Sequence record: PQ349265.1 | Length of the DNA stretch: 64,000 nt | DNA from: Escherichia phage CJY920 | Reading direction: 5' to 3' (one strand) | Part shown: positions 33,317-51,377 of the stretch, piece by piece | Layout of the letters: each line of letters opens with the position of its first letter | Numbering within the stretch: position 1 is the first letter of the stretch | Notes under the pieces: model-generated | The model's database searches: none | What the model saw: the letters and a program-made list of their open reading frames with translations, nothing else | What the model was told of the DNA's origin: nothing | Position numbers and translations under genes: made by a program

Positions 33317-34744
33317 GTGGTAGAAATTATTCTTTCTCATCTCATATTTGATCAAGCTTATTTTTCAAAAGTTTGGCCATATATGGATTCAGAATATTTT
33401 GAAAGTGGTCCAGCTAAAAATACATTCAAATTAATTAAATCTCATGTTAATGAGTACCATAGCGTTCCATCTATTAATGCGTTAAATGTTGCATTAGAAA
33501 ATAGTTCATTTACTGAAACAGAATATTCTGGTGTAAAAACACTTATTTCAAAACTAACCGATTCTCCGGAAGACCACAGCTGGTTAGTAAAAGAAACAGA
33601 AAAATATGTTCAGCAAAGGGCGATGTTTAACGCCACATCTAAAATAATTGAAATTCAAACCAATGCTGAGCTTCCTCCAGAAAAACGAAATAAGAAAATG
33701 CCGGATGTAGGTGCTATTCCTGACATTATGCGCCAAGCATTATCAATTTCATTTGATAGCTACGTTGGCCATGATTGGATGGATGACTATGAAGCACGTT
33801 GGCTATCTTATATGAATAAAGCTCGTAAGGTTCCATTTAAACTCAAAATTCTAAATAAAATTACTAAAGGCGGAGCTGAAACTGGAACACTGAATGTTTT
33901 AATGGCTGGTGTTAACGTCGGTAAGTCATTAGGTCTGTGTTCATTGGCAGCAGATTATTTGCAGCTCGGACATAATGTTCTTTACATTTCCATGGAAATG
34001 GCAGAAGAAGTCTGTGCTAAACGTATTGATGCTAATATGCTTGACGTTTCTCTTGATGACATTGATGATGGGCATATTTCTTACGCTGAGTATAAAGGAA
34101 AAATGGAAAAATGGCGTGAGAAATCTACTCTTGGCCGTTTAATCGTTAAACAGTATCCTACTGGTGGAGCAGACGCTAATACATTTCGATCGCTTTTAAA
34201 CGAATTAAAGCTCAAGAAGAATTTTGTTCCAACAATCATTATTGTCGACTATCTAGGTATTTGTAAATCTTGTCGCATCAGAGTTTACTCAGAAAATAGT
34301 TACACAACTGTTAAAGCTATCGCAGAGGAATTGCGTGCTCTTGCTGTTGAAACCGAAACTGTTCTTTGGACTGCAGCACAGGTTGGTAAGCAAGCTTGGG
34401 ATTCTTCTGATGTTAACATGAGCGATATTGCAGAATCTGCCGGTCTTCCAGCAACAGCCGATTTTATGCTTGCGGTCATTGAAACTGAGGAGTTAGCAGC
34501 TGCTGAACAACAACTTATTAAGCAAATCAAATCACGATATGGTGATAAGAATAAATGGAATAAGTTTTTGATGGGTGTTCAAAAAGGAAATCAGAAATGG
34601 GTAGAAATTGAACAAGATTCTACTCCAACTGAAGTTAACGAAGTAGCAGGTTCGCAACAGATACAAGCTGAGCAGAATCGCTATCAAAGAAATGAATCTA
34701 CTCGAGCCCAGTTAGATGCTTTAGCAAATGAATTAAAATTTTAG
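33317..34744 (+). CDS. 41: replicative DNA helicase gp41 (DnaB-like)
   Basis: 475 aa MVEIILSHLIFDQAYFSKVWPYM...; Walker A GVNVGKS; GTG start. Confidence 0.9.
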   Translation: MVEIILSHLIFDQAYFSKVWPYMDSEYFESGPAKNTFKLIKSHVNEYHSVPSINALNVALENSSFTETEYSGVKTLISKLTDSPEDHSWLVKETEKYVQQRAMFNATSKIIEIQTNAELPPEKRNKKMPDVGAIPDIMRQALSISFDSYVGHDWMDDYEARWLSYMNKARKVPFKLKILNKITKGGAETGTLNVLMAGVNVGKSLGLCSLAADYLQLGHNVLYISMEMAEEVCAKRIDANMLDVSLDDIDDGHISYAEYKGKMEKWREKSTLGRLIVKQYPTGGADANTFRSLLNELKLKKNFVPTIIIVDYLGICKSCRIRVYSENSYTTVKAIAEELRALAVETETVLWTAAQVGKQAWDSSDVNMSDIAESAGLPATADFMLAVIETEELAAAEQQLIKQIKSRYGDKNKWNKFLMGVQKGNQKWVEIEQDSTPTEVNEVAGSQQIQAEQNRYQRNESTRAQLDALANELKF

Positions 34745-34773
34745 TTTACAAGCTGACAGGACTATGGTATAGT
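34744..34773 (+). promoter_or_regulatory. early sigma70-type promoter
   Basis: GTTTAC -35, TATAGT -10. Confidence 0.5.
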
Positions 34774-34802
34774 AGTCTTGTTGGTTAAATGAGGAGATTG
34801 TT

Positions 34803-35898: not shown

Positions 35899-36524
35899 TG
35901 CTTTATCAAATGCACAAGTGCAAAGACACGTACAAATATAAAGGTGCCCAGTGTTATATCATTAATCGTGAAAACGCAGGTCCAGGTCATTCGCATCAAT
36001 CAAGATTTGTATTTGTTAAAAATAATGAAATTATAGCAGTTGCTAATTACGTGCTTGTGACTAGTGATGTTAATCCGGTGCCTTTTACATATTATAATCT
36101 AATGGACTTGGCGTACGATTATAATTGGTTTAATCGTGACACTTTGGCTCATATCGAAGGCGTAGGATTTGACATCTCTTACTCTAGTTACTCGTTGTGT
36201 CCTATGAGCCGAGCTCATAAAGAGCCTGAATATTTTTCATTTCGGCGGCGCGTAGACTTTAAACGCAGCACAGAGTATATTGGTGGAATCTTTGTTAAAG
36301 ATAATCGAATTACTCGCATTATTTATCCTTTGGGTTGTGGTCAAAAAGATATTGATGTTGATTTAGACTTTACTGAAAACATCATTAATCATATTGCTTC
36401 TGTGTATTTTGATATTGATCACAAAATTGTAATATGCGGATATGAATTACCATCGGAAAAACAGTTTAAAGTAAAAGTTTCTATTGATGACCAAATTTTT
36501 AATGCTTTTATGAATAGAGGTTAA
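35898..36524 (+). CDS. hypothetical protein (208 aa)
   Basis: track ORF, ATGA overlap. Confidence 0.6.
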   Translation: MLYQMHKCKDTYKYKGAQCYIINRENAGPGHSHQSRFVFVKNNEIIAVANYVLVTSDVNPVPFTYYNLMDLAYDYNWFNRDTLAHIEGVGFDISYSSYSLCPMSRAHKEPEYFSFRRRVDFKRSTEYIGGIFVKDNRITRIIYPLGCGQKDIDVDLDFTENIINHIASVYFDIDHKIVICGYELPSEKQFKVKVSIDDQIFNAFMNRG

Positions 36525-36692: not shown

Positions 36693-37721
36693 ATGTCATC
36701 AATACCTTGGATTGATAATGAGTTTGCATATCGTGCGCTAGCTCATTTACCTAAATTCGCACAAGTAAATAATAGTTCAACTTTTAAATTACGGTTTAGA
36801 TGTCCTGTTTGTGGAGATTCAAAAACCGACCAAAATAAAGCCCGTGGATGGTATTATGGTGATAATAATGAAGGAAATATTCATTGTTATAACTGTAACT
36901 ATCATGCACCAATCGGAATATATTTAAAGGAGTTTGAACCTGATTTATATCGTGAGTATATCTTTGAAATAAGAAAAGAAAAAGGTAAAAGTCGTCCAGT
37001 AGAAAAACCTAAAGAACTTCCTAAACAACCCGAGAAGAAAATAATTAAATCTCTTCCGTCATGCATTAGATTAGATAAACTGACGGAAGACCATCCAATT
37101 ATAAAATACGTAAAAGCTCGTTGTATTCCAAAGGATAAATGGAAATATCTTTGGTTTACAACCGAATGGCCTAAATTAGTTAATAGTATAGCACCAGGAA
37201 CATATAAAAAGGAAATACCTGAGCCTCGTCTTGTTATTCCAATTTATAATGCTAATGGAAAAGCTGAGTCTTTTCAAGGACGTGCATTAAAGAAAGATGC
37301 TCCTCAAAAATATATCACCATCAAAGCTTATCCTGAGGCAACAAAAATCTATGGAGTCGAACGGGTTAAAGATGGCGATGTATATGTTCTAGAAGGACCT
37401 ATAGATTCACTTTTTATTGAAAATGGTATAGCTATTACAGGTGGTCAATTAGACCTAGAAATTGTTCCATTTAAAGATAGACGCGTGTGGGTTTTAGATA
37501 ATGAACCTCGTCACCCTGACACTATTAAACGAATGACTAAATTAGTTGATGCAGGAGAAAGGGTTATGTTTTGGGACAAATCTCCCTGGAAATCAAAAGA
37601 TGTCAATGATATGATTAGAAAGGAAGGTGCAACCCCTGAACAAATTATGGAATATATGAAAAATAATATTGCCCAAGGGCTGATGGCTAAAATGCGGCTA
37701 TCTAAATATGCTAAGATTTAA
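36693..37721 (+). CDS. 61: DNA primase gp61
   Basis: 342 aa; zinc ribbon CPVCGDS...CYNCNYH; Toprim region. Confidence 0.9.
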   Translation: MSSIPWIDNEFAYRALAHLPKFAQVNNSSTFKLRFRCPVCGDSKTDQNKARGWYYGDNNEGNIHCYNCNYHAPIGIYLKEFEPDLYREYIFEIRKEKGKSRPVEKPKELPKQPEKKIIKSLPSCIRLDKLTEDHPIIKYVKARCIPKDKWKYLWFTTEWPKLVNSIAPGTYKKEIPEPRLVIPIYNANGKAESFQGRALKKDAPQKYITIKAYPEATKIYGVERVKDGDVYVLEGPIDSLFIENGIAITGGQLDLEIVPFKDRRVWVLDNEPRHPDTIKRMTKLVDAGERVMFWDKSPWKSKDVNDMIRKEGATPEQIMEYMKNNIAQGLMAKMRLSKYAKI

Positions 37722-38022: not shown

Positions 38023-39362
<1,340 letters not shown>

Positions 39363-39423
39363 TTGCTTTATATTTAAATGATACAATTAATCTACTAATC
39401 CATGAATTGAAAGGAAAAATAAC

Positions 39424-39939
39424 ATGCCACATTTCAACGAATGTAGTCATCTGATCGAAGGCGCTGATAAAGCTCAAAATGAATACTGGGATATTCTCGG
39501 TGATGAAAAAGACCCGCTGCAGGTTATGCTTGATATGCAGAAATCTTTACAGGTTCGTTTAGCAAATGACCGCGAATACTGCTATCATCCAGATAAATTA
39601 GAAACTGCCGGTGATGTTGTTTCTTGGATGCGTGAACAAAAAGACTGCATTGACGATGAATTCCGCGAACTTCTGACTTCTCTTGGTGAAATGTCACGTG
39701 GTGAAAAAGATGCATCGGCAGTTTGGAAAAAATGGAAAGCACGTTATATTGAAGCGCAAGAAAAACGCATTGATGAAATGTCCCCAGAAGATCAGCTCGA
39801 AATTAAATTTGAGCTTGTGGATATATTTCATTTCGTATTAAATATGTTTGCTGGCCTTGGAATGAATGCGGAAGAAATCTTTAAACTTTATTATCTGAAA
39901 AACAAACATAATTTTGAACGTCAAGATAATGGATATTAA
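39424..39939 (+). CDS. 56: dCTPase/dUTPase gp56
   Basis: 171 aa, MazG-like pyrophosphatase; synteny. Confidence 0.85.
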   Translation: MPHFNECSHLIEGADKAQNEYWDILGDEKDPLQVMLDMQKSLQVRLANDREYCYHPDKLETAGDVVSWMREQKDCIDDEFRELLTSLGEMSRGEKDASAVWKKWKARYIEAQEKRIDEMSPEDQLEIKFELVDIFHFVLNMFAGLGMNAEEIFKLYYLKNKHNFERQDNGY

Positions 39940-40765
39940 TTTCAAATCTGCTCTTAAAGAAAAGTTCCCGCAATGGGAACTTTTAGATGAGTACTTAAAA
40001 ATTATAGATAAGTATAAGTTAAACACTCACATTAAATCTAAAACAGAAGCCCATCATATACTTCCTAAATGCGCATTTCCTGAGTATAGTGATTTTAAAA
40101 TATATCCTTGGAATAGAGTATATCTCCCAATATATCAACACATATATGTTCACTATCTCTTATGTTCAACTGGAAGATTTGGATTGCTGAATGCATTCCA
40201 GAGAATGACCTCAGTAAATAGCTCGCAATTTAAGAAGCTTTCTGACTTAGAGAAAGACTTTACTATTAAGTTATGGGCTGATAAACGTGAGCAATGGATA
40301 AACCAAGATACTCTTCGCAAAAGAAAATCTTTCATGTATTCCAACTTTGATTTTTGGTATAATGACTGGATTTCAAGGGATATGCCTCGTTACCGAAGAT
40401 ATTGGGGAATTTTAGTTGAAGAAAATAATCCAGAAATTTTAGGTACTCACAAAAATTGCCTAATAGCTGTAGTAAAAGATTTTTGCATAAGGTATTCAAA
40501 GGAAAATAATTTATCTATAGAAGAAGTTTTAAATATTCAAAAATTAAAACAATCATCCGAAAAAGCTTTAAAAGCTAAAGGAAAAACTTTAAGCAAAACT
40601 GCACGCAGAAATCAACTTAAATGGAATTATGAAAAAGAGCTTAGAGAATTATGGATTAATAACAACAAACCTAAATATGTCAATTTTAGAAAGTTAGCAG
40701 TTAGTCTAGGTTATCCCGATGAAAACTATATAAATATGATAAAGAGGTTTGAAAATGGTTTATAA
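39929..40765 (+). CDS. Mob-type HNH homing endonuclease
   Basis: EAHHILPKCAF...N.V.L...H..H motif; C-terminal LW..NKPKYVNFRKLAVSLGYPDENY tail shared with other Mob/Seg ORFs; ATG overlaps end of gene 56. Confidence 0.75.
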   Translation: MDINFKSALKEKFPQWELLDEYLKIIDKYKLNTHIKSKTEAHHILPKCAFPEYSDFKIYPWNRVYLPIYQHIYVHYLLCSTGRFGLLNAFQRMTSVNSSQFKKLSDLEKDFTIKLWADKREQWINQDTLRKRKSFMYSNFDFWYNDWISRDMPRYRRYWGILVEENNPEILGTHKNCLIAVVKDFCIRYSKENNLSIEEVLNIQKLKQSSEKALKAKGKTLSKTARRNQLKWNYEKELRELWINNNKPKYVNFRKLAVSLGYPDENYINMIKRFENGL

Positions 40766-40768
40766 ATA
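40761..40768 (+). promoter_or_regulatory. late promoter (TATAAATA)
   Basis: exact TATAAATA about 30 nt upstream of soc ATG; overlaps HNH stop. Confidence 0.55.
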
Positions 40769-40799
40769 CACTTGTAATTAAACAATAAAGGAGTTTATT

Positions 40800-41036
40800 A
40801 TGGGTGGTTTCGTTAACATCAAGACCTTTACTCATCCAGCGGGTGAAGGCAAAGAAGTTAAAGGTATGGAAGTTTCTGTTCCATTTGAAATCTATTCTAA
40901 CGAGCATCGTATTGCAGATTCTCATTATCAGACCTTTCCTTCTGAAAAGGCGGCATATTCTACTGTAGTTTCTGATGCAGCTGACTGGAAAACTAAGAAT
41001 GCTGCAATGTTTACGCCTACACAAATAGGTGGTTAA
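40800..41036 (+). CDS. soc: small outer capsid protein Soc
   Basis: 78 aa ...VNIKTF...HYQTFPSEKAAYSTV...; matches remembered T4 Soc. Confidence 0.8.
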   Translation: MGGFVNIKTFTHPAGEGKEVKGMEVSVPFEIYSNEHRIADSHYQTFPSEKAAYSTVVSDAADWKTKNAAMFTPTQIGG

Positions 41037-41043
41037 TAATTCA

Positions 41044-41069
41044 AGGACTCCCGAAGGAGTCCTTTTTTC
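41044..41069 (+). terminator. intrinsic terminator hairpin plus T-run
   Basis: aggactcc-cgaa-ggagtcct followed by tttttt. Confidence 0.65.
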
Positions 41070-41078
41070 ATTTTACTG

Positions 41079-50405: not shown

Positions 50406-50824
50406 TGGCTATTAGATTTGAAGTTAATAAATGGTATCAATTTAAAAATAAACAAGCTCAAGAAAATTTTATTAAAGACCATATTAATAACGGAATTTAT
50501 GCGCGCCGTTTAGGTATGTATCCTTTTAAAATTTTAGATGTGGACGCTCTTGGGCGTCCTATTAAAATTTTGTCATCTACTGGAAATTTAGTACTATCTC
50601 CTGATAAAGATGTTTTGGATGAAGACTTTATTTGGCTTTCAAAAAGTGAAGCTGGGTTCTTTGATGAAGTTGAAAATCCATACCAGGCAGCTGAAGAACA
50701 AGAGCAGGAAGAGCAAGAACAAATAGAAGATTTCACAGAATTCCCGGTAATGAAAGTTACTATTGAAAATAATGAACAGGCATGGTCCTTGTATCAGATG
50801 TTGAAAGCACACTTTAAGGAATAA
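50405..50824 (+). CDS. hypothetical acidic protein (139 aa)
   Basis: track ORF, overlapping start. Confidence 0.55.
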
Positions 50825-50826
50825 TT

Positions 50827-51003
50827 ATGCCAATGTATGATTATAAATGCCAATCCGAAGATTGCGGGCATGAATATGAAAAAATTAAAAAGATTTCTGA
50901 ACGAGAAAATGATGTTTGCCCTAAATGTCATCGTTTGTCTACTCGTCGGCCTTCTGCTCCTAAGCATGTGAATGGTGGATTTTACGACTTACTTAAAGAG
51001 TGA
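50827..51003 (+). CDS. FmdB-like zinc-ribbon protein (58 aa)
   Basis: MPMYDYKCQSEDCGHEYE...CPKCH: Y-x-Y-x-C-x2-C ... C-x2-C pattern. Confidence 0.45.
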   Translation: MPMYDYKCQSEDCGHEYEKIKKISERENDVCPKCHRLSTRRPSAPKHVNGGFYDLLKE

Positions 51004-51005
51004 TT

Positions 51006-51377
51006 ATGTTTAAAATCGGTAAGAAATATCGTGTTCGCGAAGGTGAAGAAAAGAAATATCTACTTTCTTCTATTTATAGGAATGGTTCTATTAATGCCGT
51101 AATATCTACAAGTGAATTTATCGTTGAAGATATGAAAGGTAATAATGTTACAATGATTAGTACATCATCTGGAAATGATGGAAAAATTCTTCACAGTTTT
51201 CAGAGTAATGTTCTAATTTATGATGAAGAATTTGACTTCTTCGAAGAAGTTACAGAAGATTTTGATTTTGAATGCACTATCACTATGAAATCTGGTGACC
51301 CTCTTTCTTTTACAGTTAAAGATGAAAGAAGTCGCTTGAGAATTATTAGTCTCCTTCAAGCCATTAAATTTGAGTGA
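51006..51377 (+). CDS. hypothetical protein (123 aa)
   Basis: track ORF trimmed to ATG. Confidence 0.5.
   Translation: MFKIGKKYRVREGEEKKYLLSSIYRNGSINAVISTSEFIVEDMKGNNVTMISTSSGNDGKILHSFQSNVLIYDEEFDFFEEVTEDFDFECTITMKSGDPLSFTVKDERSRLRIISLLQAIKFE

Follow-up and report, generated by a model that had tools for sequence, protein, structure and literature searches.

We analyzed a 64,000-nucleotide (nt) stretch of DNA from Escherichia phage CJY920 (PQ349265.1; hereafter the window), which is sequence of a T4-like phage (Tequatrovirus), and found that the interval between gene 56 and soc probably holds a Mob-type HNH homing endonuclease gene that is intact and free-standing and lies in a slot of variable content. 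As judged by sequence comparison, this HNH gene is one of several alternative occupants of the slot, which is bounded on the left by the stop codon of gene 56 and on the right by the late promoter of soc. The open reading frame (ORF) spans 39929-40765 (+ strand) and has 278 codons. Its ATG (39929-39931) is located inside the last codons of gene 56 (GAT AAT GGA TAT TAA), generating an 11-nt overlap, and its TAA stop codon (40763-40765) corresponds to positions 3-5 of an exact TATAAATA late promoter box (40761-40768, + strand), the end of which is separated by 31 nt from the soc ATG at 40800. Both ends agree with a previous sequence-only reading of this DNA, which had placed the start of the ORF within the final codons of gene 56 and an exact TATAAATA at its 3' end, about 30 nt upstream of soc. 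That reading gave 40768 as the end of the ORF; this coordinate is the end of the box, whereas the ORF itself ends at 40765.

Profile and motif comparisons identify the product of this ORF as a HNH enzyme of the T4 Mob family with a MobD-like architecture. The ORF matches two PHROGs entries, PHROG 655 ("homing endonuclease"; 5.3e-33) and phrog_12434 ("HNH endonuclease"; 5.3e-10). The HNH catalytic motif extends from residue 40 to residue 75 (40046-40153, + strand) and reads E40-x-H42-H43-I-L-P46...W61-N62-x-V-x-L66...H71-x-x-x-H75, including the catalytic histidine at the end of the first strand, the structural asparagine, and the metal-binding histidine in the following helix. Alignment with MobB, MobC, MobD, and MobE of T4 showed that E40, H42, H43, I44, P46, N62, V64, L66, H71, and H75 are invariant, and among 100 relatives (an exhaustive HMMER search retrieved 713) the invariant columns are exactly H42, H43, P46, N62, H71, and H75. 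In addition, a profile of the N-terminal domain, built from relatives of the ORF with the T4 sequences left out, matched MobE (9e-19), MobD (6e-13), MobC (1e-12), and MobB (3e-12), indicating that homology to the T4 Mob family covers the whole domain (the N-terminal ~95 amino acids, aa). An AlphaFold2 model of this domain (predicted local distance difference test score, pLDDT, of 96.9) has a strand at residues 39-43, a strand at 63-67, and a helix at 68-81, i.e., the beta-beta-alpha order. The C-terminal ~55 aa (40601-40762, + strand) form a presumably DNA-binding module with the pattern hW..yd.Ly.lWi.nnkPk...Fr.ia...GYPd.nY..mv..F, which matches MobD at 4.8e-20; a remote copy of this MobD-type module is found at the C-terminus of T4 SegF. 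Identity to the T4 Mob proteins is 15-22% in the alignment, and full-length identity to MobD-like ORFs reaches ~30%.

A Pfam scan of the HNH ORF returned no match at E<=0.1 and NCBIfam gave no match, while the Pfam HNH model (PF01844) is reached by 3 of 71 relatives and T4 MobB, MobC, and MobE are themselves just at its threshold (21.5-27.6 bits, with a cutoff of 21.4). The loop between the HH pair and the asparagine (FPEYSDFKIYPWN) is five residues longer than in the T4 Mob proteins and has no GG-D motif, and this greater length explains why the Pfam HNH model is not reached; the long-loop form (FPEY...WN) is the majority form in the wider family. Sequence searches of the PDB produced no match, whether the query was the protein alone or a profile of 71 sequences, and Foldseek searches of the PDB with the full AlphaFold2 model returned noise only. 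As these fold searches gave no HNH confirmation, it is the motif and the profile homology that carry the HNH assignment. The Mob-type HNH identity proposed in the sequence-only reading is upheld by the motif alignment and by the profile matches to the four T4 Mob proteins, the HNH residues being present on alignment and invariant in the 100 relatives.

The 56-soc region was found by megablast in 772 phage records, 29 of which also cover the HNH ORF. The HNH protein itself is present at 80% identity or more in 30 of the 772 records, and all 10 copies examined are located in the same slot; segF is present in 50 records and soc.2/soc.1 in at least 250. In T4 (NC_000866), the same interval is occupied by segF (formerly gene 69), which encodes a GIY-YIG homing endonuclease and whose gene body has no DNA similarity to that of the HNH ORF. 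A segF-like gene is also found in Dhakavirus AnYang, in the same frame and with the same stop register, with GTG at the start position. PD112 and IME537 have two small ORFs, soc.2 and soc.1, in the slot, and T2 is described as having a soc.2/soc.1-type arrangement as well (Belle et al., cited in PMC5931544), whereas in HMD-9 the slot is reduced to a 104-nt remnant of soc.2/soc.1. The HNH gene is therefore sporadic among close relatives, at a fixed site and in a fixed orientation between conserved genes, and it recurs in the same slot of Moonvirus KM16 (92.5%), a Klebsiella phage (97%), and Dhakavirus EcoM_005 (84%). In the EcoM_005 copy, the frame is broken by a 5-nt insertion just 3' of a hairpin near the 5' end of the gene (see below); as read from sequence, this agrees with the common course in which decay follows invasion.

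Since some content was present in the slot of every phage compared, the HNH gene is an alternative occupant that takes the place of other sequence, and the terms "extra" and "inserted" used for it in the sequence-only reading do not apply: segF, soc.2/soc.1, or a remnant is found there instead. The comparison of the 56-soc interval in related phages proposed at that time thus had a mixed outcome, as the gene is indeed patchily distributed, but the slot is otherwise filled and the promoter box is present regardless. We did not find a description of a HNH occupant of the 56/soc slot in the searchable literature; GenBank/RefSeq already label the ORF "HNH endonuclease" or "homing endonuclease" in many genomes.

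The boundaries of the cassette could be located to the nucleotide. On the 3' side, the sequences of the three slot types show no relationship as far as the base that precedes TATAAATA, and similarity resumes exactly at the box; from this point on the window sequence is also that of PD112, IME537, and HMD-9, and T4 has the box in common. The manner in which each occupant ends at this boundary differs. In T4 segF and in the segF-like gene of AnYang the TAA stop also corresponds to box positions 3-5, soc.1 has a TGA stop directly 5' of the box, and the HNH ORF of EcoM_005 ends with its own TGA 111 nt upstream of the box. It should be noted that this 111-nt segment of EcoM_005 (~1675-1790 of the stretch compared) could encode a 33-aa hydrophobic peptide (MLLWAIVFLLFLIGLGIYRITGLLERQFKDGQ). 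On the 5' side, the 11-nt sequence ATGGATATTAA is common to all HNH cassettes and T4 segF, and divergence begins directly after the stop codon of gene 56. The shared ATG was considered as proof of common descent of the HNH and segF cassettes, an argument that is weakened by HMD-9, in which the end of gene 56 reads GATAATGGGTATTAA without any endonuclease gene, so that the ATG can pre-exist. For segF, whose overlap with gene 56 is likewise 11 bp, low-level re-initiation by scanning ribosomes has been proposed (PMC2988022).

The box at the right boundary has the properties of a late promoter, namely a TATAAATA without a -35 element located just upstream of a late gene, and the homologous site of T4 is annotated as P(L)15.32 in X01416, where it overlaps the end of gene 69*/segF. 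The motif is depleted in the window, with three occurrences compared to 11.3 +/- 2.9 in shuffled sequences, and given this depletion in the early region the presence of a copy before the only late gene located there is beyond chance. The exact box is found at the same place before soc in eight other phages compared (Tequatrovirus, Dhakavirus, and the Klebsiella phage), which include phages with HNH, segF, soc.2/soc.1, and near-empty slots; Moonvirus KM16 has AATAAATA instead. Furthermore, the box and the 31-nt leader that follows it are identical in PD112, IME537, and HMD-9, none of which has the HNH gene. As box and leader are kept whatever fills the slot, the promoter belongs to the soc flank and the ORF borrows its stop codon from it. 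The sequence-only reading had left two options, that the regulatory signals of both neighbors were preserved or that the cassette supplied them; the first is what we found, and the second fails for the promoter given its presence in phages that have no such cassette.

Late transcription of soc is expected to start near 40774, about 6 nt 3' of the box. Immediately downstream we identified a leader hairpin (40769-40806, + strand); its 5' arm starts 1 nt past the end of the box, the soc AUG falls within its 3' arm, and the soc Shine-Dalgarno sequence AAGGAG is at 40788-40793. This hairpin has a predicted energy of -10 kcal/mol on read-through RNA, compared to -2.7 kcal/mol on RNA starting at 40774. 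When the leaders were folded one at a time, T4, KM16, SmallBear, and EcoM_005 were found to have equivalent hairpins of different sequence that cover the Shine-Dalgarno sequence or the AUG, and sequestration of the soc ribosome-binding site has been reported for T4 (PMC2988022). From its position, the whole soc control unit is to the right of the cassette boundary and would be unaffected by the content of the slot.

A second exact TATAAATA (40729-40736, + strand), missed in the sequence-only reading, is located inside the 3' coding end of the HNH gene (codons N-Y-I-N-M), 32 nt upstream of the soc promoter. It is shared with SH_GT and Kha5h, and is replaced by the synonymous variant TATAAACA in fPS-2, SmallBear, KM16, and EcoM_005. 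A transcript initiated there would retain the inhibitory soc hairpin. We considered this internal box as a promoter borne by the cassette and rejected it as a non-conserved synonymous variant; it is probably fortuitous. The third and last exact TATAAATA of the window is at 51071-51078 on the minus strand, in an early region that is otherwise transcribed from the plus strand, and the nearest minus-strand ORF downstream of it is 50794-50967 (57 aa).

Comparison of the cassette with its flanks revealed the behavior of a mobile element, in agreement with the earlier proposal: the distribution of the gene is patchy and the cassette is far better conserved than its left flank. The HNH protein is 100% identical in fPS-2, SH_GT, PYps10T, and Pu-Krd-SF5, and the DNA of the cassette is 99.0-99.6% identical to that of SH_GT, Kha5h, and fPS-2, phages to which gene 56 is just 73-86% identical. 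Conversely, gene 56 of the window is 99.2% identical to that of PD112, which has no HNH gene, while soc is 98.9% identical to that of Kha5h and 90.9% identical to that of PD112. Tiling of the window against these two phages showed a PD112-like backbone (97-100%) interrupted by a Kha5h-like patch (99-100%) that extends from ~39895 to ~41000, and possibly to 41347, and spans both the cassette and soc. The left crossover falls within ~45 nt of the start of the HNH ORF, and on the right side at least 240 nt of soc moved along, so that soc appears to have been co-converted with the cassette. The cassette, better conserved than its left flank, has been transferred across lineages, as expected of a homing gene. 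Together, invasion, co-conversion of a flank, and decay make up the signature that sequence comparison would be expected to give for such a gene, a signature that falls short of proving transfer driven by the nuclease.

Two further observations concern gene 56. Its interior (39564-39863 in the window) falls into two or more classes of allele, one represented by T4, PD112, and the window and another by Kha5h, SH_GT, fPS-2, and IME537, that differ by 25-50% per 30-nt tile, and its ends (the first ~140 nt and the last ~70 nt) are nearly invariant. As gene 56 is the target of SegF, this divergence may reflect past selection driven by endonucleases. In addition, fPS-2 (441-1091) and IME537 (423-1073) have a further 216-aa ORF similar to homing endonucleases 5' of gene 56, on the side of dam or the primase region. 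This ORF is absent from the window, and its presence in some relatives indicates that mobile nuclease genes can be accommodated on both sides of gene 56.

No promoter of its own was evident for the HNH ORF in our scan. The likely source of a transcript covering gene 56 and the HNH gene, by analogy with T4, is a middle promoter located between dam and gene 56 (39362-39387, + strand), identified by alignment with T4 and X01416 as the homologue of T4 P(M)16.53, with its function taken from that of the T4 site. It consists of a MotA box (ATTGCTT, 39362-39368) and a -10 element (TACAAT, 39382-39387), with a spacer 1 nt shorter than that of T4. At the 5' end of the HNH coding region there is an RNA hairpin (39960-39984, + strand) with a 10-bp stem and a 5-nt loop. 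Its predicted energy of -13.3 kcal/mol (z = -4.2) was not equaled by any of 200 shuffled sequences, a UUUU spans the 3' end of the stem, and the hairpin does not vary among five cassettes whose overall identity is 84-99%. The authors of the fPS-2 record annotated it as a terminator, and T4 segF has a hairpin of the same energy at a similar position. A simple terminator scan did not call this hairpin because its T-run is short. By analogy, it would be the counterpart of the intrinsic terminators at the 5' ends of segF (t15.94) and mobE, which have been reported for both genes, with ~30% termination for mobE (PMC2988022).

Taking these elements together, we propose that the HNH gene, having no promoter of its own, would be co-transcribed with gene 56 from the promoter at 39362-39387, that the hairpin at 39960-39984 would damp its expression, and that a low level of translation would result from re-initiation at the AUG in the 11-nt overlap with gene 56, a mechanism also proposed for segF. 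In a mixed infection, the predicted enzyme would cut an allele lacking the HNH gene near the slot, and repair from the HNH-containing genome would copy the cassette together with the adjacent soc, i.e., intronless homing with co-conversion. Expression of soc would not be affected, because late transcripts would begin ~6 nt after the box, and the hairpin by which the soc start is masked on read-through RNA would there have lost its 5' arm. The window itself looks like a natural product of homing, a PD112-like genome with a short donor-like patch, and this configuration limits where the cut site may lie.

Several points weigh against this proposal. The activity of most T4 Mob proteins (MobA-D) is unproven (PMC2988022, Table 1), and the gene 56 of the window is of the allele type found in phages without the HNH gene; an enzyme that, like SegF, had its target in gene 56 would require the window allele to be resistant. 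The mosaic could also have been produced by ordinary recombination instead of conversion initiated by a nuclease. With respect to the second point, a gene 56 allele of the HNH-less type suggests that the target need not lie in gene 56, and judging from the donor-like patch the cut site may be at the slot or to its right and not deep in gene 56, an expectation that we hold with low confidence.

One explanation that differs from ours on the role of the ORF is that it is a domesticated or inactive relic, retained because its position between gene 56 and the soc promoter prevents clean deletion or because its DNA-binding module acquired a host function, for example binding near the soc promoter in the way that I-TevI binds an operator at its own promoter. 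The ORF end does adjoin the promoter, no curated HNH model matches the ORF, its HH-N loop is longer and without the GG-D motif of T4 Mob proteins, and activity is unproven for T4 MobA-D (PMC2988022, Table 1). Nevertheless, we consider this explanation unlikely: the residues of the catalytic motif are all invariant in the 100 relatives and the long loop is the majority form of the family; the cassette is 99-100% identical while its flanks differ by 15-27%, a near-identity that, together with its occurrence in several genera, points to recent horizontal spread; and the EcoM_005 copy is visibly decayed in a way that the window copy is not. About as unlikely is the idea that the ORF is passive cargo of ordinary modular recombination at conserved junctions. 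T4-like genomes are mosaic throughout, other insertions and deletions relative to PD112 and Kha5h occur nearby, and recombination could be anchored by conserved sequence on both sides of the slot (the last ~70 nt of gene 56; the promoter and leader of soc). This would, however, leave aside that the nuclease family has members with proven homing, such as MobE, and that SegF, whose homing is likewise proven, occupies this very slot (PMC2988022), that two unrelated nuclease families are found in the one slot, and that the donor-like patch is centered on the cassette and measures ~1.1-1.5 kb in a PD112-like backbone.

We regard as very improbable that the soc late promoter arrived as part of the cassette, which would favor retention of the endonuclease gene. 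The stop codon of the ORF is indeed inside the box, the cassette contains another exact TATAAATA (at 40729) despite the depletion of this motif in the window, and promoters of downstream genes are known to be embedded in seg and mob coding regions (PMC2988022). Yet the box and its 31-nt leader are identical in PD112, IME537, and HMD-9, which have no such gene, and the box is present in T4; the HNH ORF of EcoM_005 ends 111 nt before the box with a stop of its own; and four other cassettes have TATAAACA in place of the upstream box. A last and more far-reaching explanation, which we hold as tentative and on balance not likely, is that HNH and GIY-YIG endonucleases have long been displacing each other in the 56/soc slot, and that SegF arose from a Mob-type occupant through exchange of the nuclease domain. 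SegF would then have kept the start in gene 56, the position of the 5' hairpin, the MobD-type module, and the stop in the soc promoter, and it has been termed a "hybrid" endonuclease in a review of T4 (PMC2988022). We examined whether the C-terminus of SegF is specifically closest to the module of the HNH ORF and found that it is not, as the module of another relative scores higher. This result, together with the finding that the ATG can pre-exist, is the reason for our low confidence in a domain exchange. If it were true, both enzymes might recognize related targets and compete in mixed infections.

The free-standing HNH homing gene that we favor has several counterparts among known systems. 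The closest is T4 segF, which has the same slot and orientation, the same ATGGATATTAA start, a TAA in the same register of TATAAATA, no promoter of its own, and a stable hairpin/terminator ~25-35 nt into the coding region; it differs in having a GIY-YIG nuclease domain instead of HNH and in its proven cutting in gene 56, whereas the activity of the window enzyme is predicted from its sequence. SegF cuts gene 56 of T2 and excludes the T2 allele (Belle, Landthaler and Shub 2002, as cited in PMC2988022 and PMC2330249). T4 MobD, MobB, MobC, and MobE share with the HNH protein the N-terminal E-x-HH-I-x-P...N-x-V-x-L...H-x-x-x-H domain, and the C-terminal module is of the MobD type, although mobD is located in a different slot, between nrdC.11 and mobD.1. 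Replacement of one endonuclease by another has also been described, as SegH and Hef replace mobC and mobE in T4 relatives (Sandegren et al. 2005, as summarized in PMC2988022); there too different endonuclease families swap in one intergenic slot of T4-like phages, but the slot and the genes are others, and here HNH stands in for GIY-YIG at 56/soc. Regarding soc, its control in T4 (Macdonald and Mosig, X01416; PMC2988022) is alike in having TATAAATA ~30 nt before the gene and a hairpin that masks the start on read-through RNA and is shortened in late transcripts. The T4 leader differs in sequence, with compensating changes that keep the stem in the window phage. More generally, T4 offers precedents for promoterless free-standing HNH and GIY-YIG genes with overlapping starts and 5' terminators, for downstream promoters that abut or lie inside endonuclease ORFs, and for the occurrence of different families per slot (PMC2988022).

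The interval is part of a cluster of plus-strand genes that comprises the primase gene 61 (36693-37721), a 186-aa ORF (38023-38583), dam (38583-39362), gene 56 (39424-39939), which encodes a dCTPase/dUTPase (Pfam dUTPase_2, 9.2e-06; PHROG 173, 4.6e-41), the HNH gene, and the late gene soc (40800-41036), which encodes the small outer capsid protein (Pfam PF16855, 7.8e-20), with mrh.2 and mrh.1 located 3' of soc. An intrinsic terminator after soc (41043-41074, + strand) consists of a 9-bp stem followed by a T-run, and a terminator annotation exists for the homologous site of Kha5h, fPS-2, and T4 (X01416). The 186-aa ORF between primase 61 and dam abuts the start of dam and has a sub-threshold match to Pfam DpnII (PF04556; E=0.0025, 17.6 bits with a cutoff of 23) and a PD-(D/E)xK-like stretch. 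It is absent in Kha5h, present as a 28-codon remnant in PD112, and found at 95% identity or more in ~155 T4-like phage records, those listed describing it as a "hypothetical protein." On the basis of its sequence, this ORF could encode a nuclease of GATC type that forms a pair with the Dam methylase of the phage. Further to the left, no DNA match to positions 34000-34800 and 36000-36400 of the window was found in the 14 kb of PD112 compared, and 34000-34800 is also unmatched in the Kha5h stretch, with the counterpart possibly located outside the region compared. These segments may represent further insertions or deletions, or variable cassettes, in the 61-41 region.

With regard to its significance, the finding leaves the current understanding of T4-like phages unchanged and is a tidy but ordinary example of its kind. 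For annotation, it means that the soc promoter should be recorded as a feature of soc instead of the endonuclease cassette. The 56/soc slot is, through SegF, reportedly the place where intronless homing was first demonstrated, and the HNH gene adds a second, unrelated nuclease family to it. The two genes form a natural HNH and GIY-YIG pair with nucleotide-identical cassette boundaries, which could be used to study displacement of one endonuclease by another and the reach of co-conversion in T4-like phages.

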